A DNA stretch of 64,000 nucleotides. Origin: Heterodontus francisci. Lineage: Eukaryota. Location of the stretch: NCBI RefSeq assembly GCF_036365525.1, contig NC_090396.1, forward strand, positions 28,496,283 through 28,560,282, read 5' to 3'. Each line of letters begins with the position of its first letter. Position 1 is the first letter of the stretch. The notes under the pieces are model-generated. The model did no database searches. It was not told the origin of the DNA and saw nothing but the letters and a program-made list of their open reading frames with translations. Of the stretch, positions 6,887 through 30,788 are shown piece after piece. The position numbers were made by a program, and so were the translations under genes.

Positions 6887-8119
6887 GTAATATTTCCAAG
6901 TTTGCAGATGACACAAGACATGGTGGGAATGTGAGTTGTGAGGAGGATGCAAACAAGGAGATTTGGACAGGCTGAGTGAGTGAGCGAGAACATGGCAGAT
7001 GGAATATAATGTGGATAAGTGTGAGGTTATCCACTTTGGTAGAAGGAACACAGATGCAGAGTATTTCTTAAATGATGAAAGGGTGGAAAGTGTTGATGTC
7101 CAAAGGGACCTAGGTGTCCTTGTTCATAAGTTACTGAAAGCTAACATGCAGGTGCAGCAAGCAATTAGGAAGGCAAATGGTGTGTTAGCCTTTATTGCAA
7201 GAGGATTTGAGTACAGGAGCAAAGAAGTCTTACTTCAATTGTATAGAGCATTGGTGAGGCTACACCTGGAATATTGTGTGCAGTTTTGGTCCTCTTGCCT
7301 GAGGAAGGAAATACTTGCCATAGAGGGAATGCAGCGGAGTTCATCAGACTGATTCCTGGGATGGTGGGATTGTTGATTGAGGAGACTGGGCCAGTATTCT
7401 CTGGAGTTTAGAAGAATGTGAGGTGATCTCATAGAAACTTACAAAATTCTTAAAGGGATAGACAGGGTAGATGCAGAAAGGATGTTTCCTCTGGCTGTGA
7501 GGTCCAGACCCAGGTGACACAATCTCAGAATAATGGGCAAGCCATTTAGGACTGAGATGAGGAGGAACTTCTTCACTCAGAGGGTGGTGAATCTTTGAAA
7601 TTCAGTGTTATCCAATGAACTGCCACATGTAGCTCACTGTGAATCCAGATGTGGCCAATCACCTATTAGTAAATAAAAAGAGTGATAGATACTGGGAAAC
7701 TTGATATTCATATTTTCACACCATATGCCTTTGTTGGTGAAGTGGTAAGACAAAAAAACAGCATATGATGCATCATATTCGCGGGCTATACTTCAGCCCT
7801 TCTATCTCACTCCTACCAGAGTGTGACGATGGAAGGCCATGGAATGTTGGTCTTTTTCAAGTTCAATCTCAGACATATTAAATAGGGACCAACTTCCCTG
7901 GCATTTCAGTGAAATAATAGTGGCTGCTGCGGCATCTTGCTGAATGACTTACAGTGAACAAATGTGTAAAAATTGGGGGAAGGACCATGGTATTAAAAAA
8001 AAAACTAAAGGTATCGAATTGTTGTGTGTCTCCTAGCATTTCAAAAATGTATGATGTGTCAAATGTTTGAAATTGATGCAACTTGAGAATTGAAAGGCTC
8101 TGAAATATTTCATTAACAG

Positions 8120-8242
8120 GCCTCACCGGATTGGATAAACGCTTTGTGGCATTCAATGGAGGTTTCAGTCAGGAGCAGTTGGTTTGGCTAAACAAAGTAC
8201 TAACTTTCTCAGATAGTAACCAGGAGAAGGTTACAGTTGCTG
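8120..8242 (+). CDS. ADPRM: ADPRM (Mn-dependent ADP-ribose/CDP-alcohol diphosphatase), penultimate coding exon
   Basis: ttaacag| acceptor and |gtaagt donor, 123 nt, phase 1-1. Translates (G)[40 protein letters not shown], matching recalled human [32 protein letters not shown]. Splices in frame to 25681. Absent from the ORF track. Upstream exons lie outside the window. Confidence 0.93.
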
Positions 8243-13248: not shown

Positions 13249-13755
13249 GTCCATACCAGCTCTCTGTAGAGCGATCCAGTCAGTCCCATTGCCCCATTTT
13301 ACCCCCCTAGCACTGAAAGTCTATTTCCTTCAAGTGTCCATCCAGTTTCCTTTTGAAATCACTGATCCTCTCCCCATCCACCACCCTCATAGGCAACTGG
13401 CCAGATTTTACCTTAGGCGGACAGGAATTCGCCACCGATGTAAAAGTCGGTGGCGAACCCGCTTCCACCTAGCCTGGACATCCATCCCGCATTTTACAGG
13501 TCCCCGGGCTTTAATTGTCCCGAGGTGGGACTTCCAGCTGCTTGAGGGAGAAAATTCTGCCTCAGTGAGCTGCCGCCCAATCAGTGGGCCGGCAGCCCTT
13601 AGTCCCAGCAGTGCCACTGGGAGCGGTGGCCACTGCTGGGACTGCAGCCCAGCCGATGACATGGTGGCAGGAGGGAAGGTAAGTTGGGCATGCCTCACCA
13701 GGGACATCAGTCATGCCCTGGTGAGGCTAGGGTGGTCATTTGGGGGGGGGGGGGG

Positions 13756-14364
13756 TGTTGTGCCTAATACGCACTTCCTCTTAAAGAATCCGCGGAATCC
13801 GATTGGTGAAAAGTATATCGATATTTTATTCACATACTAAATCATCAAATACAAGCTCTCACTACTTGTACAGTATACTACCCATCAAGACACTGGGTGA
13901 TCAGTCTCGGACTTGCAGCTGCTGTTCTGTTCTCTGAGCCCCTGGCTCAGGGTATCTTCTCAAGTGTTCTTCCCCGTGGTTCTTGGACCTTCCCTAGTTT
14001 CAGTCAGGGGTTAAATCTTGTTTCCAAGACCCTCCCCTCTTACTCATAGGGGTCTGGCATAATGACATAATGATAATTCCTTATTTGGCTCAGTGAGCAC
14101 CTGTTCAAAACTTCACAGTTTCCCGTTATCTACTGTGAGTCAGATCTTATCTAGTATCCATGACGACCCCCTTTATCTGCTACATGAAAGACAGGGTCTG
14201 GTGTCATCAATATGTCTTATCTATACTGTTTACAATTCCTCGGCCATCTGTGTGCTGTGGCCCCATTCTACTCATAGCCCCTATTGTTTAACACAATTAT
14301 TTATTGTTGTGTGACTAGCCCATTTGTTTTAACTAAATTTTTGTGTGTTTTTACTGGGTCTACA
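13756..14364 (-). repeat. 3' LTR of ERV (609 bp)
   Basis: Same termini as the 5' LTR; preceded on the minus strand by the PPT; AATAAA on the minus strand near 13825-13830. Confidence 0.95.
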
Positions 14365-14375
14365 GTCCCCCCTTT
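14365..14375 (-). promoter_or_regulatory. Polypurine tract
   Basis: AAAGGGGGGAC directly abuts the TGTAG start of the 3' LTR. Confidence 0.85.
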
Positions 14376-14643
14376 GATCCTGCAGGGCTATGCCCAAGGG
14401 ATCACACTCTCATGTCTCTTAGGTAGTACACTTGTCCAATTACAATTTCATTTTCAAAGCAAAAGCATAAGCAGTGTAATGTTAAAGAAAGCACAATTTA
14501 AACATCACTATTACATAATCAATCAATTGTGTGAACATAATACAGTGCAATTTCATTCTTAGAGTATGTTGATCATTCATTAATTCATTTTCAGTATATA
14601 CGAATAGGTTATACAATTACCCTCTTGTTACATAACTAATTGT

Positions 14644-16051
14644 CTATCTTTTATAGAACAAGTTCGAATACTGATCACCTTTAAGATAGCTGTCCAACCT
14701 GTGTTCATACATCCTCTCACATTGCCTAATTAATTTCAACAAAATGTACTGTTGCTCACCAGACAAGTCCGGTTATGTCCATACTGGTACTCCTCTGCCG
14801 TGGTGGGTAAGCAATATCTCCCCTTTCCCATATAGGCCACATGGGTTACCCCTGACAATGCTTTCCTAGTTTCCATGGTGCAATAGACAGTGGCATTAAC
14901 TCCACATTTTGATTCTTCTGTTTTATATATAGGATGAGGACATATGACCACCTGGTTTTCCACACTACACTCAGACAATGTTGTTCCAACTACCTCTTTT
15001 CCAATTTCCACAACATAGGGTAAAATATCATGGTATTTTATGTAATCTTTTCCCCTTATCACCCCTATATTTTCCACTTTATATAACTGCATCCCTAACT
15101 TATCTCTCGGAATTACAGGTATTCCCAATACTACTCCAATACTCATAGATCTTGTACTTACACACTCCTGACCCTTCCATACCTTAACAAGTTTTCTGAG
15201 TTCTAACCTTCTGGTCCACATTTTCCAAATCTATAGTATTAACAACTGAAGTTAAAGACTGTGACTACGTCATTAACTAAACTACGTTTACGTCTCTTTC
15301 CCTTTATTATTCCCTCATCACCAAATTCTTGTCTCAGCAATTGTTGCAGTCGTACCTTATACAACTCTCGGGTCTTCTCAGGGCACCAGCCAGGTAGCTG
15401 GATATCTGAGATATTTAATATTACTGGTACCAACTCATGCTGTATATTATCACATACAATTTTATTTTTTATTATCGCAAGTCCATTTTCTGGTCCTGCA
15501 GTTAAGGCAGGGCAAGGGAGATCAGTCACTTGTGGCTGCTGGATTGTAACCCTCCTCATTAGTAATTCGGGTGTGGGGTTAACCGTGGTGGTTGGAGCTT
15601 CTAGCCCGATTACACTCACGACCTGAAGTAGAAACTGTCCTTTTTTATTTTTCCCAACGCAGTCGAGCCAATAACCCTATCACTGTGCGGCTTCACACAC
15701 AGTGGTCGGTTCTTACAGTCTTTATCATCACATTCCCATACAGGAAATTTGGGGCCACCTGGTGGGTCCCGTAAGGTGGTTCCCTTTGGGCATTCGACAC
15801 ATACCCACTGTCTGATAGTAACATTTACAAAATAAGCCCACTGCTCCCACCGCTCGTCCCCAACTGCAACTTCCCATAGCCCCTGATAGTTGCCATGTAC
15901 TTCTACTGAGTCAGACAATGTCATCTGTATGTCCTCCCCTGAATCAGTTCCCGTTACAGCACTTGATGTTATACGGTCTGTCATCCTCCTTCAACGCGTT
16001 GATGGCTACAGCTGCAGCAGTCATCACGAGCAATAGATACCAAGGTTTCAT
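14644..16051 (-). pseudogene. env: ERV env, class I fusion protein of Mononegavirales F-like type; disrupted and internally deleted
   Basis: Splice acceptor (atcttacag|) 8 nt before the ATG at 16051; signal peptide MKPWYLLLVMTAAAVA; F2-like block; furin site KRRKR followed by SLVNDVVTVFN; Cys-rich F1-like block; remnant tail ...YSNLFYKR*. Confidence 0.8.
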
Positions 16052-16101
16052 TCTGTTACCTGTAAGATCAAGATAACACCTGCTCTTATTTACAGTTCTC
16101 A

Positions 16102-19100
16102 TTAGTGTACCCCAGCTGGGTCAAACTCATCATCACTTATGCGGATTAATCGACCCCGTACCCCTAGTTCTGATGGACCATTACCCTGTGGTTTCCCCAT
16201 TCGCCTCCACTCTGTTTGAAGGTGTGGTTTAAGCTGTTTCCTTTTTGAACGGACAGCTGGTTCCACATTTAATTTCTCTGTTTTGATGCTACCTTTCTCA
16301 ACTTCTGTGACTCCAGAGGAAGTGGCTTCCCCTGGGTCCTCTAGAAACATTCTCTGGAATGCAAAACTTAAGTTTTCCATATCATCCTCTAAGAACTGAG
16401 GACTCTGATCCTGTCCATTTCCTCCATGGGCGGGAGCGTTTCCCACTTGCCCCATCTCTACCTCTCCTAGTGCGTCTGACTGTACATGGTGTTGATGGCT
16501 ATTCTGTATTCCGAATAGTTTAAGTTGGTTCACCTGGTACCAGCGTGCCCTATCGTTCTCCATCATTACCTTGTACACTGACGGCCGGCTTTATCTATGA
16601 TACGGTATGGCCCAGCGTATTTTGGGGACAAAAAAGTTCCTGTCTGTTGGATTCGGACCATAACTTGTTGCCCCACATCTAGTTCTACCATCTTTATCTT
16701 TCCATCAAAATATGCCTTACTTTGTTTCTGTTTCCGTCCCATTTGTACTGCTGCTATCTTCTGAGTTGCCCACAAATGCTCCAATAACTGATTCATAAAT
16801 TTCTCACGGGTTAGGGCAGTTATCTCAGGTTCAGAAAGGTCTAACCCCAACAGTGTTACTATCCCTCGCATTTGTTTTCCCGTCATTAGGGCATGGGGGG
16901 GTAAATCCAGTCGAGCTGGATACCATGTGACTGATTACCATCAGGACGTAGGGTCGGACCTTATACCAAGTTGAATTATTTTGCTGCACAGTCTTTCTCA
17001 ACATTCCCTTTAAAGTCCTGTTGATTCTTTCTACAATCCCACTTGACTGAGGGCGATAGACTATATGGAATTTCTGATCAATCGCCAACATAGTCATCAC
17101 ACTCTGCATCACTTCAGCAGTGAAGTGAGACCCTTGATCTGATTCTATGCTTCGAGGCAACCCCCATCTGGTAAAAACATGCTGCACTAAAATATCAGCA
17201 GTTACCCGTGCTGTGTTACTCTTTGTGGGAAAAGCCTCTACCTATTTAGTGAAAGTATCAATAATCACCAGTACATATTTAAATCCTCCCCTGCATGGAG
17301 GCAATGGCCCCACATAATCAATCTGCAGATTCGTCCACGGCCCTTCTACCGGACGTGTGTGTCGTAATTCTCCTTTCTGTGTGTACTGGTCTGGATTATT
17401 TTGAGCACAAATCAAACAGTTTTCCACATAATGCTTCACATCTCCTCCCATTCCTGGCCACCAACACAATTCCTTTATTCGACCTTCTGTAGCCTCCATC
17501 CCTTGGTGTCCTTGTACATCATGACACTGATAAATTATTTGATTTCTATCCTCTATCAGCACTGCATATTTTCCTTCCTTCAGTACCACTCCTGTCTCTG
17601 ATTGTATCTTCGACCTCCATCTAGAATACTCTTCTGGCCATTTTTCTTTTCTGTATCTGTTTTAGTATGGGATCTTGGCTTTGTGCCTCTACCAGATCTT
17701 CAATCTTAAGCTGGGAGACTATCACTGCGCTTATGGGGTTCGTGTCATCTCCCCTCGGATCCCAATATTTCCCTGCTCTTGGTCCGGTCTTTGCTAACTC
17801 ATTGGCTCTCTTATTTCCTTCAGGACTCTCTTAACTATGAGCCTTTACTTTAATGATCCCGTACTGACCTTCCCCTTTTCTTGCTGCATTTACTATCCTC
17901 TGCAGTAAGAGGGCAGACAGCAAAGGTTTTCCATCTGCCGACACAAAACCTCTCGCTTTCCACAGAGGTAGGTACTCGGTTAAACTGTTACACACATACA
18001 TACTATCAGAATAAATGTCAACTGGTGGGGGAAACGTGTGGTTGTGTCACCATAAAAGCGACCGCAGCTAGTTCTGCACCCTACGCACATAGACTCACGG
18101 GTAACTGTAAGGCAATATCTTTAATAGGTGTTCCATTATGATCCTGTACATGTAATCCACATCCTGTCTGCCTAATCCCATCCTCCATTGGAGAGGAACC
18201 GTCAATAACATTTTTTAGAGCTGGTTTGATTTCTGGCTCTTTCCCATGTACACCCCCCAATGATTTTGACACAAAAGGTCCCTTGAGGGCCTTTGCCTTT
18301 TTTACTGAAATGTCTCTGCCTTGCAAGAGTAAGGTCCACTGAGCAATACGATTCTGACTAACATTACCATTCCTCAGTCGTCCATCCAGTAACAACCGGA
18401 TAGGCGTGTGTTCAGTTAGAATAGTTACCGGGCTGAGGCCGACAATATAAGTAAAATGTTGAACTGCCCAGAAGACGGCCAGCAAATGCTTTTCACACAC
18501 TGTAAAAGCTCGTTCTACTGATGTTAACAAGCGAGACACGTACGCCACTGGACAAAAATCGACCATATTTTTCCTGAAGCAATAAGGTAGTATCTGTGGT
18601 AGCAACCTCGAGGGCAAAGGGTAGGGATGGGTCCGGCACCTGTAGCGCTGGGGCTGTGGCTAGTGCCTGTTTTAATTCTGCAACTGCTGACGTACACTCT
18701 GGTGTCCATACCCACTCGGAGTTCTTCTTCAGGAGATCATATAAAGGGGCTGCCTTTAAGGCAAATCCATCAATATGGTTCCTGCAATACCCAACAAGGC
18801 CCAAAAATGATCTCAGAGCTTTAATATCTTGTGGTAGGGGAAGTTCGAGGATTGTCTGTACTCGCTTTTGCTCTATCTCGTGCTTTCCCTGTGTTACCAC
18901 TATTCCCAAATACGAAACCTTTTCTTTCAATATCTGTGCCTTTTTCGGGTTAACTTTCACTCCGACCTTCCAAAGGAGTTGAAGGAATTCCTCCAGTAGC
19001 TCGAAATGCTCTTCCTTACGCTCCGTTTGGAGAAAAAGGTCATCCAAAAATTGGATCAAACATTCTGATAGGGAGAAAGGACTTAACCCTTTTGCCAACC

Positions 19101-20050
19101 GCTGGTGGAATATTGATGGACTATTATGAAATCCCTGGGGGAGACATGTCCAGGTGTACTGTTGTCCCTGGAACGTAAACGCAAATTTATATTGATGCTG
19201 TTGTGCCAGTGGTATGGACCAGAACTCGTTACTAATATCCAACACGGTAAACCATTTAGACTGTGGGAACTGCTTCATTATCATTGCAGGGCTTGTAGAA
19301 ATAGTCGGTGCTGTCAAGGGTGTGACCTTATTTAATTCTCGATAGTCAATAGTCAATCGCCATGATCCATCTGGTTTACGGACGGGCCAAATAGGAGCGT
19401 TATTGGTGGATGCCATTGGTCTTCATATCGCCTGTTGTAGGAGACTGTCAATGACCTTCCTATCTCCGCCTGTTTGGGGAACCCATACTGTTTCTGGGGT
19501 CGATGATCTGGCCCCTCAATTAGGACGTCGCCTGTCATCCGTCCGCAATCATGCTTGTGAGTTGCAAACACCGAACGGTGTTTTTCAATAACTTGCGCTG
19601 CCGCATCAGCAGTCATGTCCTCTGGGTTTAACCCCAATTCTGCCATCGCGCAGATTCTCTCTGTGTATTGACCCGTTTGGATCATACCAGAGAAACCCTG
19701 CACGTTCGGCATCTTCCAGATGCAACAATTCACCGGATCAAAAGACAAACCTTGTTTCCTCATTACATCTGATCCCAAAATGTTCTCCATCAATTGTCCC
19801 AACTTGACGATCACATGTGTACGGTTAAAACAATAATTTTCAAATCTGAATAGTAATGGTTTCATTTCAATCCCTGTTTGAACATGGCCTGTAAAGCCAC
19901 TTAACAGCACTTTATTCTGGGTATGTCAAGAAGGGTCTGTTCCTTTAGATTGCTTCAGGACTGTCCGGGATCCACCGGTATCCCACAAAAACATAGCGAG
20001 GCAGCCTCCTACCTCACTTTTCACCACCGGTCGCCCAAACGGATCCCATC
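16102..20050 (-). pseudogene. pol: ERV pro-pol (PR, RT, tether, RNase H, IN), disrupted
   Basis: PR FLWDTGGSRTVL (DTG at 19974-19982). RT PIWPVRKPDGSWRLTIDYRELNK, LPQGFHNSP, FLDD. Tether PVAYVSRLL...EKHLLAVFWAV. RNase H VIDGSS...AELAAV...KVKAH...GNKRANELAK. IN HHCC (HDVQGH...CLIC), D-D-E (LQIDYVG, ESDQGSHF, GIVERIN) and GPY motif. Confidence 0.92.
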
Positions 20051-20199
20051 TCCCTTTGCAAACCCACTCCACCGAGGCCTGACACCATCAATCGTCCCAG
20101 CCTGTATCGAGATCAGAATTACAGGTAACCAACTTGGTTAACCCTTCCTTCTGTCCAGCCCTTCTCCGGATTTCACTAACAGGAGCCATAGGATGATAT

Positions 20200-21900
20200 C
20201 GACCACCCTCGCACTCCGGCTGCTGAGTCACCGGTCTCCTGGCCCCTTCCAAAGGCAACGGAGGGTATAGGATACTTCTGGTTCTCCTTCCCTTATATGT
20301 TGCTGGGGTGCATTACAATCACGAACGAAAATGTCCTTGCTTCCCGCAATTAAAACATCTGCCGATTATGGGCAGGGGGGAATTGTTCCTGGCCATCGCT
20401 CTACCTCACCCTACTTCTTCTTCATAAAGGGGTGGTGGTGGTACCCTAGCTGTGCGACCTCGACCTTTCCTGGGCCCCTCATTTCTCCATACTGTTCCCG
20501 GGCCCCTCGGGTGAAAGGCGCTGATTTTGCCCTTTCACTTGTCTTTATTGGTTTCTCGTTTTCCCAGGCCTCTTTCCCATACATGAGTCATATGTCGGAG
20601 AGCCCACTATTCAGTGTGGGTTTGGTCTTCCAGATCAGAACTCTCACATGCATTCTGACTACTCTCATTAGAATGAGCTGTCAACATGCGCACCCATCTA
20701 GATGTGTTATTCCCAAGATTAGTTCTGCCTAGTCTGGGCCCATAAACTCCATTGAAATTATTCCATAATCGATAGGCAAACACCACCAGATGCTCATTCA
20801 ACCCCTGCCGGCACTTATGCAAGCCTTCTGTGGGATCCCCTTTATTACACCCTGATGCTGCCAATATTGCTGCCTTCATTTCATCTGGGGTACCCTCGCC
20901 CCCTTGCTGTGCTTGTGGCAATGCAGAGAAGAGTATGGGAGCAAAACACATTCCCAATAGTTTAACCTCCTCTTTATTGTCCAATCCGTGTAGAGCCCGT
21001 AAATGGGTTATAGCTGCAAAGGTAATGTACAGGTCCCCTTCTCCATTATACTTAGGGACCTCCTTCTGCATTTCTGCCAATTGAGTGATCGTATATGTTA
21101 GTGTTTGCCCCCTTGGACCCCGTCTATTCGACTAGTTATCAATGGTGCCATAGGTAAGGCCAGGGTGGGGGCAGACAGCTCAGTTGGGGGTTCAGGCGGT
21201 TCGGGAGATGGATCATCCCATGAACCGTTTTCATCGTTATGGTACGTACTGGCCTGGTCTGCCAAGTCGGTCCACTTAATGTCGTCATTGTCATCATCCT
21301 CCCTATCCACAAACGCGCATATTATACCCCTTTGCGCTGAGAGTTGAGACTGTAGTTTATTTATCTCCTGCTGACATTTTGTATGATCCGCTGACTGGTA
21401 CGCCTGCTCCGTCTGAGTGGTTGATAACTGTCATTGCGGTCTGTAAGTCAGAGCATTTCTGTTCCGTTCTTGTGAGCTGTTCCTTTGCCTTGTTCGCTTC
21501 CCTCTCAGCCTTACTGCGTCGGTACTCAGCCTTTTCAACTTGAGACTGGAATTGACTTAAAATGCACTACCTGTGCTGCACTAACTGACTCTGCCTTCAG
21601 GGCCCTATCACGCCACTCATTCTTTTCTTTTTCTGACTTTTGCAACTCCTGCTTCAATCTTTCGGCTTCACTCTCTTTTTCATCTAATTCCCTCATACAA
21701 GCAGTGGCTTTCACTAACATAGGTGCCCTTTTGGCTTGGTGGGTACGCGCATCCTCCCATTGCTATACCCCAACGGACCCCTGGCCCGTGTATTGTAAAC
21801 TCTATCCACGAGGGCTACTTGCCCTTCAAATATTTCCGGAGCTCCAACTCCCATGCTGGCCTGGCCAGGGCTATAATTACTCAATCCGATCTGTCAGACT
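20200..21900 (-). pseudogene. gag: ERV gag (disrupted)
   Basis: Coiled-coil segment (ELDEKESEAERLKQELQKSEKEKNEW), acidic/Pro-rich linker, capsid-like block (EVPKYNGEGDL...LHKCRQGLNEHLVVFAYRLW), and zinc knuckle CFNCGKQGHF(fs)VRDC at about 20315-20357. Boundaries approximate. Confidence 0.8.
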
Positions 21901-21972
21901 CGTAATTTTGTTTATAATTTAGTTCAAACTCAGCGAGGCTATTCAAAATAATTTGAAATAGCACTACAATTG

Positions 21973-21990
21973 AGTGCTGTTCGGGCACCA
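21973..21990 (-). promoter_or_regulatory. Primer binding site, tRNA-Lys(UUU/Lys3)-like
   Basis: TGGTGCCCGAACAGCACT, 4 nt after the 5' LTR, versus canonical Lys3 PBS TGGCGCCCGAACAGGGAC (13 of the first 14 nt match). Confidence 0.8.
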
Positions 21991-21994
21991 ATTA

Positions 21995-22644
21995 TGTTGT
22001 GCTTAATACGCACTTACTCTTAAAGAATCCACAGAATCCGATTGGTGAAAGGTATATTGATATTTTATTCACATACTAAATTATCAAATACAAATTCTCA
22101 CTACTTGCACAGTATCAAAACTCAAAGTACAAGCTCTCACTATTTGTACGATATACCACCCGTCAAGACACGAGGTGATCAGTCTCAGACTCGCGGCTGC
22201 TGTTCTGTTCTCTGAGCCCCTGGCTCAGGGTATCTTCTCGAATGTTCTTCCCCGGGGTTCTTGTACCTTCCCTAGTTTCAGTCAGGGGTTAAATCTTGTT
22301 TCCAAGACCCTCCCCTCTTACTTACTCATAAGGGTCTGGTATAATGACAATGATAATTCCTTATTTGGCTCGGTGAGAACCTGTTCAAAACTTCACAGTT
22401 TCCCATTACCTACTATGAGTCAGATCTTATCTAGTATCCATGACGACCCCCTTTATCTGCTACATGAAAGACAGGGTCTGGTATCATCAATATGTCTTAT
22501 CTATACTGTTTACAATTCCTCGGCCATCTGTGTGCTGTGGCCCCGTTCTACTCATACCCCCCCATGTTTTAACACATTATTTATTGTTGTGTGACTAGCC
22601 CATTTGTTTTAACTAAATTTTGATGTGTTTTTGATGGGTCTACA
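21995..22644 (-). repeat. 5' LTR of ERV (650 bp)
   Basis: Minus strand reads TGTAGACCC...CACAACA; homologous to 13756-14364; carries an extra ~40-bp tandem copy near 22085-22155. Confidence 0.95.
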
Positions 22645-24749
22645 GGGGGTGGGGAAGGGGGGCGTCTTGGGTCCCAGGGGTTGGGAGTGGGGGTGGCCCT
22701 CAATTGGGCACCCTGTGCCCGACTGCCATGGCACCCCACCGGCACGCAGAAAGGCCAGCAGCTATTGCTGGGTGGCCTTTCATGTCCCCAGCATGCCCGC
22801 TTGCCACGGGTAAAATACCCGTGGAGGCTGGCGATGCTGGCCAATTAAGGGCCTTGATTGGCCTTGGACGGGCAGGCTGACCTTTTTTCCGACCGTCGTA
22901 AAGTTGGCCGGAGGCAGGAGCGGGGCGAGGAGGCCTCCGGAGCCTCCCATTCAATTTTACTCCGCCCCCACTCCCAACCCCTGGGACCCAATAAAATTCA
23001 GCCCAATGAGTTCCAGCTCATCACCACTTGCTGGGTGAAAGAGTTCTTCCTCACATTCCCCCCTGCATCTCTTGTCCAAAATCTGTGTTCCCTAGTCCCT
23101 GTACCATCAGCTAATGGAAACAGTATTTCTTTGTTAACCTTACCTGTCATAATCTTGTACACCTCTATCAAATCTCCTCTCAATTTTCTTTGTTCCAAGG
23201 AGAACAACACAAGCTTCTCCAATCTAACCTTGTAGCTAAACTTCCTCAACCCTGGAACCATTCTGGCAAATCTCCTCTGCACCCTCTCAAGGACGCTCAT
23301 ATCCTTCCTAAAATTTGCTGACCAGAACTGGATGCAATAGTCTAGTTGTGCCATAACCAGACCTTTATAAAGGTTCTGCACAATTTCCCTGCATTTGTAC
23401 TCAATACCTCTATTTGTGAAGCCAAAGATTCCATATGCTTTGCTAACTACACTCTAAATATGGCCTACCACCTTCAAAGATCTATGGACGTGAATCCCCA
23501 GGTCCCTCTGTTCTTGCACACTCTTTAGAACTGCACCATTAAGTCCATATTAGCTCCCCCATCTCTTCTGCCAAAATGTTCACACTTCTCTGTATTAAAT
23601 TCCATCTGCCACTTGTCTGTCCATTCTGCTAGCCTATCTATGCCCTGTTGCAATCAATTAGTATCATTCTCACTATTTGCTTCCAAGTTTGGTATCATTG
23701 GCAAATTAAAAAATTTACTCTGCATTCCAATGTCCAAGTCATTTATATATAGCAAATAAAGCTGTGATCCTAGCACTGAACCTTGGGGAACACCATTGTC
23801 TACCATCCTCCAGTCTGAAAAACGACCATTTACCACAACTCGCTGTTTTCTGTCCTTTAGCCAATTTTTTATCCAAGAGAAACTGTACCTAACCCAATAT
23901 ATTTTTACAAGCTTCTTGTTGATGTATTCAATTCATCACCTTGAAATTTCCTAACCATCACCACCACTAGTGACAGAGCAGCAGTACTTTACTGAACTGT
24001 TGTATAGTGCAAAATGCTCTCATCAGCTATACCAAAGTTTGGTGATGTCTGTAATTGTGTTGTTCCATGTTTATCACAGTTCAACTGGACAATGCTCTGA
24101 ACAGCATGAGTTAACTATTTTGATGTAGATTCCTGATCTTATCTGAATAGAGACCTTAGGCAGACGCTGAAAGTCTACCTAGATCAACAAGAGGAGGATG
24201 GAAGAAATCCAGTAATTCTTAGGTGATACAATGCTTCATCTTTCAAAGTCTGTAGATTGTAGAATTGACCCTATTACAGTAACATTGATGCCAACAAGAG
24301 TGCTGCTAACAAGAGACAAAGATTAAGAACAATTGGTACAAGTGATTGTGAGTGCCTAAGTGACAACAGAGAGTGATGAACTAAGCAAATGCTCCCCCCA
24401 CCCCTGGCCAGAAATGGACCCAAAACACCTAACCTTGTATTTCGTAATGAACTACTGTCTGACCTGTTAGTTTTCACAACTTGCAGGTGAGCACATGTGG
24501 AACATACACCTGTTATGGATGGGATCTTCCACATGCCATCTGGTTCGAGAACTGAGCAGCACACAGATAGAGTGAAAATCTGGCTCATCGATTTCCACCT
24601 AATTGCACAAAGACTACAGCTCTAATAGCATTGTATATTTTTTTTTATCAAATATTATTCTATACATTACATTAATTATTGTGGAATGCCATTTATATGT
24701 GGTCCTATTATAACTATTTACAGGGTAACAATAACTCATCTTTGATTAT

Positions 24750-25390: not shown

Positions 25391-25680
25391 CAAGTATAGT
25401 CATATTAAATGGTTTGTTTAATTTATATTGAACTCTTGGGGGAAACAGAGCACTGAGAGGTAGTTATAGAATGTTGGGATAACCTTTTGTACGGTGAATT
25501 CCATATACTCCACCAATGCACACAGACACTTCCTGAAAATCATTATCTAATCAACCCAGCAGTATATTTCACTTCAGCTTGTGTGTGTGATGACTGAAGC
25601 CATAACTATCTGATCCAGCATCATCAAAGGTGCTGACAATGTCGGATCACACAAATAAAATCTTTGTCTTCTTCTTGCAG

Positions 25681-25976
25681 CTCATGTTCCAATCCATCCA
25701 TGTTCTACAAATTCACAAGGTGTTGCCTGGAACTATGAAGAGATCCTCTCCGTATTGTACGCACACAGTAGTGTAGTGTGTTTTATGGCAGGACACGATC
25801 ACGATGGTGGCTACTACTTGGACGATCATGGAATTCACCATCTTACCTTTGAAGGTGTGATTGAAACATCACCAGAGAGCCATGCATTTGGAACTATCCA
25901 CGTATATAGTGACAGAATGATTTTAAAGGGAAGGGGCAGGATTCAGGACAGGATTCTACACTATAGGAAAATCTGA
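25681..25976 (+). CDS. ADPRM: ADPRM last coding exon
   Basis: Polypyrimidine tract plus cag acceptor ending at 25680. Translates (A)HVPIHP...AWNYEEIL...VVCFMAGHDHDGGY...EGVIETSPESHAFGTIHVYSDRMILKGRGRIQDRILHYRKI*, with the calcineurin-like metallophosphoesterase GHxH motif and an ADPRM-type C-terminus. Confidence 0.95.
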
Positions 25977-27959: not shown

Positions 27960-30788
27960 TGTTATGACCGAGGCGGGAGCAATGCACTGTCAATTCAGTC
28001 CCATCACTCCCAGGTCACAGCATATTCTTAAAGTTTTCCCACCTAACTGGAAAACAGCCAAATTAAACAGGTGTGTGTCCCATTCTGTATAACTCTGGAT
28101 CAGCTTGCTGTGCTACAGTGATAGAAGATCTGTTAAACATCTCATTTGGATTATCTAAATCCCCAGCTATCTGTGGTGCCACTTTTACCTCTGTCAATGG
28201 AACATTGCTCAGGTGACTATACACGCAGGAAATATTCTCAGAACTTGTTCCGGTAATTGTTCAGTTTCTTTAACTTCACTTGGTTCCTCTGTAAACTGAT
28301 ACTTTTGAGTCAGCCAAATCATTTCCTAGGAGTAGATCAATTCCCTCTACAGGCAAACCGTGGACTACTACAGTTACCATCCCAGATATTTAGTCACTCT
28401 CTTGGCGCACTTTATATAAAGGTACAGGTATATACTCCCCACCAATTCCATTAACTAAAACTTTAGCGTTCAAGGCACTCTCTGGTGGAAACGTTACACC
28501 TTTCCCCAGCAAGAATATTTGGGTTGCTCCTGTATCCCTGAGTATATCGGTTTTCTTGCCTCACTTAAAGTATATGGAGTTACTTTCCCCTTTGACAAAA
28601 ATTAATTATAACTTTCCAGTATCTAATTCTTAACGTCTACACTCACTTTAGTTTTTGTATCTGGTTTTACAGCTGCCGTTAAAGCTACAGCCTGGTCTGC
28701 TGTACTGTCAGTCAGAGCTACTTCCTCTGCATTAGCTTTGTGTACCCCAACAAGTCCTATGGGTTTACCTCGTAACTTCCAGCATTCTGAACCAAGATGA
28801 CCAGTTTTGTGGCAATGACAACACTTCAACTTGTGAACCTCACTTGTAACTTCAGCACCTTTTCAGGCCTGAGGTGGTGATCCTGGGGCATTCCCAGCTG
28901 TTCCTTCTTGTCCCTGGCTACTTGTCTTCCTTTCACTTTCCCACTTTCTATCCTTCTCGGGTTTATGGGGGTGACGGACAAAAGGTTTTGGCTTCTTCAC
29001 AAGCTCAAAATCATCAGCAATTTCTGCTGCTTGCCTAGCTTTCAAAACTTTCAAGTTATCTACATGAGTTCTCATATGTAGTTTCCATCTTTAATGCCCG
29101 TATCCAACGGTCAAAATGAATTTGCTTCACCCTCTCACATTGTAAAAACATCTGCCCAGCCAATCTCTGTAAGTTTCGAAACTTCTAACAGTAAGTTTCA
29201 GGGACGAACTCATAGGCAGTGAGAATAGCCTTTTTTTGCCATTTTATAATCTGCAAAAGCCTCTTCGGAAAGCATGGCATAAACTTCATGAGCTCTGCCT
29301 ATCAACCTGCTTTGCATTAGTAGTGTCCAGCTTTCCTTTGGCCATTTCATTTGTTCAGCTATTTTTTCAAAAGATGTGAAAAATCCTTCTCCATCCCTTT
29401 CCTCAAACTTAGGAAGAGCTTGTATAAGTTTAAACAGCTTTTTGCTGAGCCCTGGGCTGAATTCAGTTTCTTCCTGACCAGAACTTTCCCTGGATTCAAG
29501 ACTACCCCTTTGTCTTAGTTCCATCTCTTTTAACCTAAATTCCCTCCCTTTCTCCCTTTCAAATTCAAGTTTTCTTATTGCTATTTCTTTTTCCGTTTCT
29601 TGTTGAAGCCTAAGTTTGCTCATTTCTTGTTCCTGCTAGTTTTTTTCATTTGTAACTGAATCTTAGCCAATTCAACTGCATCACTCTGAGTTATCTTCTT
29701 CTTCCAATTCCAGATGTTAGGCTATTAGGTCAATTATCACTGCTTTTTTAGCACCTGATTTCAATTCTAACCCCAATTTTGCCGCCAACTCTTTTAGTTT
29801 ATTCTTGGTTAAAGTTGTCAAGTCACTGAGGGCACATTCTCCTTTCCCAGAAACTCTGCTGCAACTGCTAATGCCATTCTGATGATACAGCCTTTACCCT
29901 TATATACAAGAAAACTGGTTCCTTTTATGTTTCTCTTTCAAATTATTAATCCCCTTATAATTCACGTAATTGGCTCTAGATTTGGATCCCGACAATTGAG
30001 TCTCCAATTAATATGATTCCAGACATGAGAGCAATTTTTATGACCCCAGAAGCAAGAGCAATTAATATGATTAATATGATCCCAGAGATGAGCCCCCAAT
30101 TAGATGTTACAACCGAGGTGGGAGCAATGCACTGTCAATTCAGTCCCATCACTTCACAGGTCGCAACACCTTATTAAAGTTTTCCCACCTAATCGGAGAA
30201 CAGCCAAATTAAACATTTTATTCAACCCCCGGAATAAAATACACCAAACCAGGTATCTTTAAACAACAAATTAACTATTTATTAATAAACTAAATCATAA
30301 ACACTATTAAGATAAATTTATGTCTTAAGACCTTATAACTTCTTATTCAACCTAAACCCCCCTTTACATTCAAAAACTGTCAGTCAACCAGTTTTTGTAA
30401 AAAATGGGGTTTCTTAGGAATAAAATAAGTAGCAGGGATTTAAGTCCTGGTGAGTTATGTTCCCGGTTGATGAGGTGTCCCAGGGTAGAATAATCAGATG
30501 CCACTCGAAGTCTCCAGGCGAATTTGACGAAACAGTCTTTAATAGATAGGCAAAGTATTTCAGCTGCAGCAGGCACTTCTTTGGGCTCCGGATCAGGCTG
30601 GTTTCAGCCTGTCACTGCACACAGTCAAATTGAAACATTACAGCACATCTCCTGCTGTTGCCTAGGGAACAGGCTGGCTGTGGCACTGTTCTCAAAGAAT
30701 CTAAAAAAACTTCTCTTTATGTCTTAAAGGTACACTGTTTTTAGACAGAGTCTTAAAGGCATGCTGCTTTAAACAAAGTTCCATGACA
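27960..30788 (-). mobile_element. Gmr1-like (SCAN-gag type) Ty3/Gypsy element, internally deleted (no RT/IN)
   Basis: 5' LTR at 30105-30788, 3' LTR remnant at 27960-~28070, TSD TCTT/CCTT. tRNA-Pro-like PBS TGGGGGCTCATC. Gag LPKFEERDGEGFFTSFEKIA...WPKESWTLLMQSRLIGRAHEVY; knuckle CCHCHKTGHLGSEC; protease ILRDTGATQ at about 28520-28546. Confidence 0.85.

Follow-up and report, generated by a model that had tools for sequence, protein, structure and literature searches.

An endogenous retrovirus family of the horn shark with a canonical-type reverse transcriptase and an envelope related to that of lokiretroviruses

According to PMC9040795, the envelope proteins (Env) of canonical retroviruses and of lokiretroviruses share no detectable similarity, which is the basis of an argument for two independent origins of retroviruses, and Wang & Han there preferred two env acquisitions by retroviruses. 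Canonical class III-like ERVs are already known from a chimaera, as the available text of PMC4422223 reports, and neither there for CmiERV-I nor in the available text of PMC6001957 for class III / clade Huo elements is an F-type or lokiretrovirus-related Env described. Our literature search, whose scope stopped short of subscription papers and Repbase/Dfam, gave no account of such an Env on a shark canonical ERV. Here we describe a provirus from Heterodontus francisci, found in a window of 64,000 nucleotides (the whole stretch analysed, contig NC_090396.1), that a preliminary description had taken for full-length and lokiretrovirus-like, and as perhaps filling a host gap in cartilaginous fishes. 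We consider it highly probable that this germ-line provirus, now broken, belongs to a multi-copy horn-shark family, with a reverse transcriptase (RT) that goes with canonical retroviruses and an Env related to that of lokiretroviruses.

The provirus and its host locus

The provirus lies on the minus strand, antisense to an ADPRM-like gene of Heterodontus francisci in whose last intron it sits, and its domains follow the order gag-pro-RT-tether-RNaseH-IN-env with an LTR at either end. The features, in window positions, are as follows.

8119..8238, plus strand: penultimate exon of the host ADPRM-like gene, upstream of the provirus (tblastn of P0154)
13752..13755, no strand: left target-site duplication, GGGG, within a flanking run of 14 G; its 4-bp length is the family value from solo LTRs
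13756..14364, minus strand: 3' LTR, 609 bp, TG...CA
14366..14375, minus strand: polypurine tract, shared with sister copies
14644..16051, minus strand: env remnant, frameshifted, with two large internal deletions and the membrane anchor gone; signal peptide, SU, furin site, fusion-peptide start, Cys-rich TM-subunit core and cytoplasmic tail are kept
15284..15298, minus strand: putative furin-type basic cleavage site of Env, as read from the sequence
16510..17560 (ends approximate), minus strand: broken integrase with HHCC zinc finger, core and C-terminal SH3/GPY-F-like module (Pfam Integrase_H2C2, rve, SH3_Tf2-1)
17780..18220 (ends approximate), minus strand: second RNase H, retrovirus-type, frameshifted (PF00075 in sister frame P0001, mapped over)
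18325..18700 (ends approximate), minus strand: tether, a degenerate Ty3/Gypsy-type RNase H (PF17917/PF17919 and alignment)
18700..19461, minus strand: RT core of canonical-retrovirus type (RVT_1, LPQG motif, trees)
19750..20036 (ends approximate), minus strand: aspartic protease, DTG motif (PF00077 in sister frame)
20088..20090, minus strand: in-frame gag/pro TGA, likely readthrough site (sequence)
20091..21874, minus strand: gag remnant with coiled-coil-like N-terminal region, capsid region and one zinc-knuckle remnant near 20357
21973..21990, minus strand: Lys-type primer-binding site, degenerate in this copy, with a 4-nt spacer to the LTR
21995..22644, minus strand: 5' LTR, 650 bp, TG...CA
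22645..22648, no strand: right target-site duplication, GGGG
25678..25976, plus strand: last coding exon of the host ADPRM-like gene; the provirus is antisense in the preceding intron

Much of the anatomy given in the preliminary description was borne out, namely the two LTRs, the polypurine tract ahead of the 3' LTR, the Lys-like primer-binding site, and the gag-pro-pol-env order with a degenerate plus a second RNase H. Pfam matched RVT_1, RT_RNaseH (the tether) and the integrase in the provirus' own frames; its matches to the zinc knuckle, the protease and the second RNase_H are in the frame of a sister copy that can be mapped to the provirus. A TGG motif stands 4 nt past the 5' LTR, and sister copies have the full 18-nt site, which we take to be that of tRNA-Lys3 after the HIV-1 site. 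The two LTRs differ by 42 mismatches against 569 matches (K2P 0.073, 7% diverged), and the insertion is from about 16 to about 165 million years old, depending on the assumed substitution rate. The term full-length holds for the span from LTR to LTR and fails for the coding content: compared with sister copies, gag-pol falls into eight alignment pieces with shifting frames and stops, and env has two gaps, one of about 108 codons following the fusion peptide and one of about 130 codons in which the membrane anchor lay. This copy is no longer able to encode a working Env or Pol. The stop at the gag/pro position is found also in a second family (L035), in SnRV and in a lokiretrovirus (L062), and is absent from one sister copy (P0001). 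Neither the provirus nor a sister copy has a separate smc-like ORF, which is present in some lokiretroviruses, and only a coiled-coil-like Gag N-terminus was seen.

The GGGGG duplication proposed earlier has to give way to a shorter one. The target duplication of the family is 4 bp, exact in 7 of its 15 solo-LTR candidates and with one mismatch in 2 more, and none of the 15 has an exact duplication of 5 or 6 bp. The assignment to a cartilaginous fish was confirmed, as the last ADPRM exon is 100% identical over 92 amino acids to a protein labelled Heterodontus francisci and 79-90% to those of other sharks. The family is multi-copy, with at least 150 copies in the horn-shark genome (all 150 scored env matches, the provirus itself excluded, have 77-92% identity), and relatives of its Env were found in six further elasmobranch genera and two frogs. 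No RNA sequencing run is on record as carrying the element, contigs of two other organisms have LTR-like pieces, none of them informative as to whether they share the insertion, and viral contigs gave no match to the RT query or to the lokiretrovirus pattern.

Placement of the reverse transcriptase

The RT tree comprised 48 rows (3 lokiretroviruses, 37 canonical retroviruses including the provirus, and 8 Gypsy elements) and the RT plus tether tree 33 rows, with only 2-3 rows for lokiretroviruses; the references were natural lokiretrovirus, foamy, SnRV and orthoretrovirus sequences, with Odin, fish foamy-like (FLERV) and lamprey/amphibian lokiretrovirus rows left out. The RT tree shows two sister groups, the lokiretroviruses (100/100) and the 37 canonical rows with the provirus among them (100/98), and the RT plus tether tree recovers the canonical clade, provirus included, at 100/99. 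AU tests rejected a grouping of the provirus with lokiretroviruses (p=0.04 for RT, p=0.0005 for RT plus tether). Moreover, the family shares the motif LPQGF...QYVDD with SnRV, MLV and Latimeria, whereas lokiretroviruses have CPFGY...IYVDD; the provirus RT has, like SnRV and MLV, a Gln two residues ahead of the catalytic Asp pair region. These results show that the provirus RT belongs in the canonical retroviruses. An earlier RT tree without lokiretrovirus and foamy rows, which put the Gypsy outgroup inside the provirus grade, was replaced by these fuller trees.

The ERVs closest in RT, which are annotated 'NYNRIN-like', come from amphibians and the coelacanth and fall into the basal grade of class III / clade Huo. 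The best named relatives over RT and tether are amphibian and coelacanth elements at 54-56%, with SnRV-like elements at 42% and lokiretroviruses at 39-40%. The RT tree joins the provirus with Xenopus, Latimeria, Rhinophrynus and Aquarana at 99/96, a clade that becomes an open fork once the tether is added; the tether-only tree resolves no relationships. SnRV is not grouped with the provirus clade in the RT tree (open fork) or in the RT plus tether tree, which draws it with eel/Astyanax/epsilon/gamma rows (91/79). Of 28,347 candidates for a lokiretrovirus RT in the horn-shark genome, the 144 that were scored had at most 41% identity to the query, and the lokiretrovirus motif pattern had no match. 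With its RT inside the canonical retroviruses, the provirus leaves the chondrichthyan host gap of lokiretroviruses unfilled, and given the genome search that gap remains for the shark.

Envelope, integrase and competing origins

An Env profile of 36 rows, made of shark and frog homologues with no lokiretrovirus row, was searched against 2,825 frame segments and found lokiretrovirus Env at E 1.2e-17 and 2.9e-17, foamy Env at 0.002 and SnRV Env at 0.3. By hhalign it matched lokiretrovirus Env at 98% (E 1e-13, 382 columns) and SnRV Env at 92% (E 7e-7, 341 columns); a shallow profile, before more homologues were added, had given E 0.003, 0.09 and 0.01 for lokiretroviruses, SnRV and foamy viruses, respectively. 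Such profile comparisons show the family Env to be related to lokiretrovirus Env, as the preliminary description had proposed. Sister frames have a signal peptide, an RXKR site, a fusion peptide, a coiled coil and a TM segment, and none of four long natural Env frames carries CX6CC or the gamma-type LQNR motif, in agreement with the ISD/CX6CC-less env noted before. TLV_coat had no match among the 36 Env members. The likeness to F proteins, also proposed there, finds support in the ESM Atlas, whose first matches from language-model features were Baculo_F and Fusion_gly clusters (0.91 and 0.93). Pfam found no fusion-protein family and no PF00523 in the Env frames, a PDB sequence search gave nothing under E 0.1, and an AlphaFold model of the shallow alignment (pLDDT 39.9) was unusable for a fold search. 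From the Atlas features, the Env is predicted to be of the paramyxovirus-F-like fusion type. Integration of the live element left a 4-bp duplication; tRNA-Lys was its likely primer, readthrough of the gag stop the likely source of its Pol, and a furin-cleaved class I fusion protein, of paramyxovirus-F type by prediction, its likely means of entry into cells.

By BLAST the integrase scores 270 bits against lokiretroviruses and 130 against SnRV, and the tether 99 and 69, and foamy viruses too lie below lokiretroviruses for both, whereas for the second RNase H SnRV and foamy viruses outscore lokiretroviruses. The homologous Env, these integrase and tether scores and the dual RNase H could speak for a true lokiretrovirus in a shark, within the lineage that is sister to canonical retroviruses. 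However, tether plus second RNase H, both found in the family, are common to all retroviruses and not diagnostic; the Gag zinc knuckle and the short protease-RT linker are unlike the lokiretrovirus frames compared, and the RNase H score and the genome search oppose it as well. With the RT trees, AU tests and RT motifs against it, membership under an RT definition is refuted, and we regard this reading as very improbable. The top PDB matches of the RT are foamy virus enzymes (177 bits), and the 4-bp duplication and the Lys primer-binding site would also fit a foamy-like (spuma) shark ERV, and foamy Env is F-like (PMC11468914). But MLV scores equally (176 bits), both RT trees set the foamy rows apart on a long branch of their own (the fish FLERV rows being outside these trees), the Env similarity to foamy viruses is weak, and the zinc knuckle, the one-frame gag-pol and the lack of accessory ORFs from env to the 3' LTR speak against it too; we regard this origin as very improbable. 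An errantivirus-like Ty3/Gypsy element that had captured an F-type env could be suspected from the arthropod Baculo_F/Gypsy clusters among the first Atlas matches and from the Gypsy-like C-terminal module of the integrase; the split of the RT from 8 Gypsy rows (100/99) refutes that identity, tether and second RNase H oppose it, and we give it practically no weight.

There remains the origin of the 3' half. One recombination could have swapped integrase and env of a canonical retrovirus for lokiretrovirus-like ones, or lokiretroviruses could have taken theirs from the shark lineage. The two regions lie side by side, and for each the best-scoring references are lokiretroviruses; the full integrase tree nests lokiretroviruses with Latimeria, frog and turtle relatives (94/85), env exchange is common among anamniote ERVs (10.1101/2021.11.23.469661), and one sister copy has 80-84% nucleotide identity in pol with an env not alignable at the nucleotide level. 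However, no starred branch in the integrase trees joins lokiretroviruses and the shark family; without 15 long or redundant rows the lokiretrovirus grouping (89/79) adjoins the Gypsy root, without starred support, which fits a slowly evolving ancestral integrase equally well. The Env tree leaves lokiretroviruses, SnRV and the shark/frog groups in an open fork, and SnRV and foamy Env are homologous too (PMC11468914). We regard this exchange as possible, though somewhat less likely than not. The lokiretrovirus integrase also lies near relatives annotated NYNRIN-like, without starred support (NYNRIN itself is absent from the tree). Because SnRV and foamy Env belong to the same Env family, the common ancestor of lokiretroviruses and canonical retroviruses could have had an F-type Env; basal canonical retroviruses of sharks and amphibians would then have inherited the F-type Env and the NYNRIN-like integrase of lokiretroviruses, gamma- and beta-type Envs would be later replacements, and env would have been gained once and not twice. 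We find this scenario quite possible while stopping short of favouring it.

Whatever the route, a canonical RT and a lokiretrovirus-related Env in one LTR-bounded provirus contradict the lack of Env similarity stated in PMC9040795, and at the level of sequence profiles the Env family links lokiretrovirus Env with that of SnRV and, weakly, of foamy viruses. This suggests that the lokiretrovirus-type Env probably arose earlier and occurs in a wider range of retroviruses than proposed. Their co-occurrence makes the number of env gains testable by the congruence of Env and RT trees in shark and amphibian genomes, and the entire class would escape screens baited with gamma- or beta-type Envs.

Comparison with known systems

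With lokiretroviruses (Wang & Han, PMC7947760) the shark family shares an Env homologous over about 380 columns, the tether and RNase H, possibly a NYNRIN/CGIN1-like integrase, and a one-frame gag-pol with a stop. It differs in an RT outside their clade with LPQG in place of CPFG, in its zinc knuckle and in the absence of a long pre-RT insert or a separate smc ORF. The SnRV reference (locus L083) was recognised by its RT motif, which matches the Wang & Han supplement. SnRV resembles the family in its RT (46% identical, LPQGF/QYVDD), its single zinc knuckle, its in-frame gag/pro stop and a homologous non-gamma Env. It differs in an integrase far more distant from that of the shark than the lokiretrovirus one, in a far longer SU and in 3' accessory ORFs; the shark Env is closer to lokiretrovirus Env than to SnRV Env.

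Foamy viruses have 4-bp target duplications and a Lys-type primer-binding site, as the shark family does. Their Env is in the F-like class I family (PMC11468914), as is predicted for the shark Env, whereas the shark family has a separate RT clade, weak Env sequence similarity, a zinc knuckle and no leader peptide or accessory genes. XtERV-S (PMC8278194) likewise joins an amphibian class III pol to a non-matching env, an env exchange in the same grade, although its own Env is gamma-type with ISD and CX6CC, and it has a Ser primer-binding site, a 5-bp duplication and no Cys-His box. The elephant shark's CmiERV lineage I (Han 2015, PMC4422223), likened here by description, has a cartilaginous-fish host and LTR-bounded gag-pol-env as well. 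Finally, the family shares with clade Huo / class III ERVs (Xu et al. 2018, PMC6001957), CmiERV lineage I among them, a canonical RT of the basal grade that holds SnRV-like and ERV-L elements.

Anatomy, setting and age of the provirus

As the preliminary description had it, the provirus is bounded by two LTRs. These differ at 42 of 611 aligned columns (K2P 0.073). Exons of the host gene ADPRM are found on both sides:

13756-22644, minus strand: provirus
21995-22644, minus strand: 5' LTR, 650 bp, TG...CA
13756-14364, minus strand: 3' LTR, 609 bp, TG...CA
about 25678-25976: last ADPRM exon
8119-8238: preceding ADPRM exon

Because the preceding exon is at 8119-8238, the provirus lies antisense within the last ADPRM intron. 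The last exon matches a protein labelled Heterodontus francisci at every one of 92 aa; identity is 79-90% for other sharks and does not exceed 74% for bony vertebrates and the chimaera, which bears out the cartilaginous-fish host. Two ADPRM paralogues carry the H. francisci label (P0154 and P0159, whose last exons are 88% identical); the gene here is one of them, and the window covers no more than its final two coding exons. The provirus seems nested in a non-autonomous repeat with inverted ends (about 13400-13755 and 22645-23005), whose right part is very high-copy in reads and includes a 30-bp inverted repeat (22667-22696/22962-22991); at 29210-29635 (minus strand) a 141-aa frame resembles a Gypsy/SCAN-type gag fragment.

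The purine tract noticed earlier is present directly upstream of the 3' LTR, and the primer site, which starts with TGG, is set off from the 5' LTR by a 4-nt spacer. This site, which we take to be of tRNA-Lys3 type, is complete in sister copies but degenerate in the window copy. The spacer (21991-21994, from the terminal CA of the LTR) was present in every copy seen, including the sister 5' LTRs L034, L040, L139, L141, L147 and L156; the gap from the purine tract to the 3' LTR is only 2 nt, making the viral DNA ends asymmetric. Window frames match RVT_1 (E 1e-33), RT_RNaseH (a degenerate Ty3/Gypsy-type RNase H, the tether), Integrase_H2C2 and rve, and P0001, a natural protein frame of a sister copy that can be aligned along the window, supplies a zinc knuckle, a protease and a further RNase_H domain (E 5e-19), all in the order expected of a retrovirus, in agreement with the two RNase H domains first reported. 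"Full-length" is correct from LTR to LTR but not for coding, as gag-pol is broken into 8 alignment pieces with shifting frames and stops, and env has two gaps, one of about 108 codons following the fusion peptide and one of about 130 that takes out the membrane anchor. The window copy is not coding-complete; it is dead.

The proposed GGGGG (5-bp) target duplication had to be abandoned. Of the 25 LTR loci examined, ten had a PBS or PPT alongside and so were provirus ends; in the remaining 15, an exact 4-bp duplication was found in seven and one with a single mismatch in two, and an exact 5- or 6-bp duplication in none. One provirus with both ends examined also showed 4 bp, which is the target duplication of the family. 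This family is abundant, with copy counts that are lower bounds: at least 150 RT matches (150 scored of 27,498 candidates), at least 150 env matches at 77-92% identity, not counting the window itself (4,812 candidates), and at least 41 LTR matches (40 scored of 1,608 candidates). LTR distances in three other proviruses were 0.039-0.061, and literature rates of 2.2e-9 (reported in PMC7947760) or 2.2e-10 (in PMC4422223) give the window copy an age of about 16 or 165 million years, respectively.

The element has proviral anatomy, leaves a 4-bp integration footprint and has spread to hundreds of sites. By analogy with retrovirus biology, it would be primed by tRNA-Lys, would make Pol by readthrough of an in-frame gag/pro stop (found in the window, a second shark ERV family, snakehead retrovirus (SnRV) and one lokiretrovirus locus, and absent in P0001) and would enter through a furin-primed class I fusogen.

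Reverse transcriptase placement

What defines lokiretroviruses is their RT, which forms the sister clade of that of all remaining retroviruses (PMC7947760). Supplement rows of that paper list six screened chondrichthyan genomes, with none marked positive. Our lokiretrovirus references were three metagenome-contig loci picked out because they show the CPFGY motif and Env layout published for the group (L061-L063, near-complete elements in public contigs, presumably of host DNA); the others were 13 foamy genomes, SnRV, alpha/beta and lentivirus loci, and gamma, epsilon, ERV-L and Gypsy proteins. The RT tree (48 rows, 260 columns) places the three lokiretrovirus rows (100/100) as the sister group of a canonical clade of 37 rows (100/98). 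This clade includes the window, which groups with the second shark family and Xenopus, Latimeria, Rhinophrynus and Aquarana elements (99/96). In the RT+tether tree (33 rows, 401 columns), where P0001 stands for the window (RT 86% identical), the canonical clade is kept (100/99) and the inner grouping of window relatives opens. Neither tree recovered a specific clade of the shark element and SnRV. Constraining the shark rows with lokiretroviruses was rejected (p-AU 0.04 for RT, 0.0005 for RT+tether), and the RT motif is LPQGF...QYVDD in the shark family, SnRV, MLV and Latimeria, and CPFGY...IYVDD in lokiretroviruses. Lokiretrovirus membership, as first proposed, is therefore not supported, since it fails on the defining RT clade in trees, AU tests and motifs, and the host gap in sharks is left unfilled. 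A lokiretrovirus RT query against the horn-shark genome reached at best 41% identity, to this same family (144 scored of 28,347 candidates), and the lokiretrovirus motif pattern had no site there.

The best home for the element is the basal grade of canonical retroviruses named clade Huo/class III by Xu et al. (PMC6001957), a grade reported from chimaera as CmiERV lineage I (PMC4422223). Its nearest amphibian and coelacanth Pol relatives (P0002-P0005) are annotated 'NYNRIN-like', and mammalian NYNRIN may owe its RNase H-integrase portion to their lineage.

An envelope homologous to that of lokiretroviruses

Sister Env frames present a signal peptide, SU, a basic cleavage site, a fusion peptide and long helices, followed by a Cys-rich core, a second helix, a membrane anchor and a tail; neither CX6CC nor the ISD motif occurs in the four long natural frames checked, as noted for the window copy. 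Searching 1.84 billion representative sequences with a profile yielded 45 Env relatives, and the 20 looked up were 15 elasmobranch (Heterodontus, Mustelus, Chiloscyllium, Scyliorhinus, Pristiophorus, Heptranchias, Rhinoraja), two frog (Pelodytes, Xenopus) and three unnamed. A profile of 36 shark and frog rows, with lokiretrovirus, SnRV and foamy rows left out, was run against 2,825 frame segments and retrieved lokiretrovirus Env at E 1.2e-17 and 2.9e-17; the best foamy Env, from frames truncated near 840 aa, scored 0.0023 and SnRV 0.31, with noise marked by a betaretrovirus-locus segment at 0.037. Profile-profile comparison gave 98% for lokiretroviruses (E 1e-13, 382 columns), 92% for SnRV (E 7e-7, 341 columns) and 23% for foamy viruses (E 9e-4, 121 columns). 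The shark Env is homologous to that of lokiretroviruses, and this part of the preliminary description is supported, but its F-type fold is a prediction: Env searches gave no Pfam F-protein or PDB match, and the sole AlphaFold model was unusable. Language-model features pointing to the Baculo_F (0.91) and Fusion_gly (0.93) clusters are a lead; foamy Env is described as F-like by cryo-EM (PMC11468914).

Within the group, env was either exchanged or diverged rapidly. In the sister provirus L031 (1790-3878), pol is 80-84% identical in nucleotides and env does not align at that level, although a profile still recognises its Env as a homologue (E 2e-8; hhalign E 6e-6); here env exchange inside the family is likely. 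The second shark family (L035-L038, L109-L118) has 71% identical RT and a related Env at about 25%; large deletions inside env are found in many of its copies, and several copies lie together on one contig (C40). Long unbroken Env frames (P0245, Chiloscyllium, 739 aa, its SU part named Ig-like in UniRef; P0251, Pelodytes, 723 aa; P0273, 749 aa) are either young ERVs or co-opted genes. The three database proteins close to Env are all labelled H. francisci, and the Fbxo15 models P0151 and P0152 from this species end in about 200 aa of family Env, membrane anchor included, either an annotation artefact or an exonised env fragment.

Integrase and the history of env

The shark integrase scored 270 bits against lokiretroviruses and 130 against SnRV, and the tether 99 and 69; the second RNase H behaved oppositely (47 and 64). 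In the integrase tree lokiretroviruses fall amid Latimeria, frog and turtle relatives (94/85); once 15 long or redundant rows are taken out, support for this drops to 89/79, next to the Gypsy branch. These scores and trees fit an exchange of the integrase-env half by recombination and fit equally a slowly evolving ancestral integrase, and the Env tree favours neither.

Our literature search found no lokiretrovirus-related Env described on a canonical class III-like ERV of cartilaginous fish; Repbase/Dfam and subscription journals were outside its scope, so an earlier naming of the family is possible. One survey of anamniote Env covered gamma and beta types only (10.1101/2021.11.23.469661), and another work announces its own vertebrate ERV analysis separately (10.1101/2023.10.26.564294). 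Canonical class III-like ERVs were already known in cartilaginous fish, and the provirus observation as a whole is partly confirmed. We consider it very probable that this is a broken horn-shark provirus combining a canonical-type RT with a lokiretrovirus-related Env. According to Wang & Han 2022 (PMC9040795), canonical and lokiretrovirus Env have no detectable similarity and two independent env gains are preferred; a single origin of env in retroviruses is an idea that we would put forward only tentatively, next to the Env similarity detected here between an element with a canonical-type RT and lokiretroviruses.
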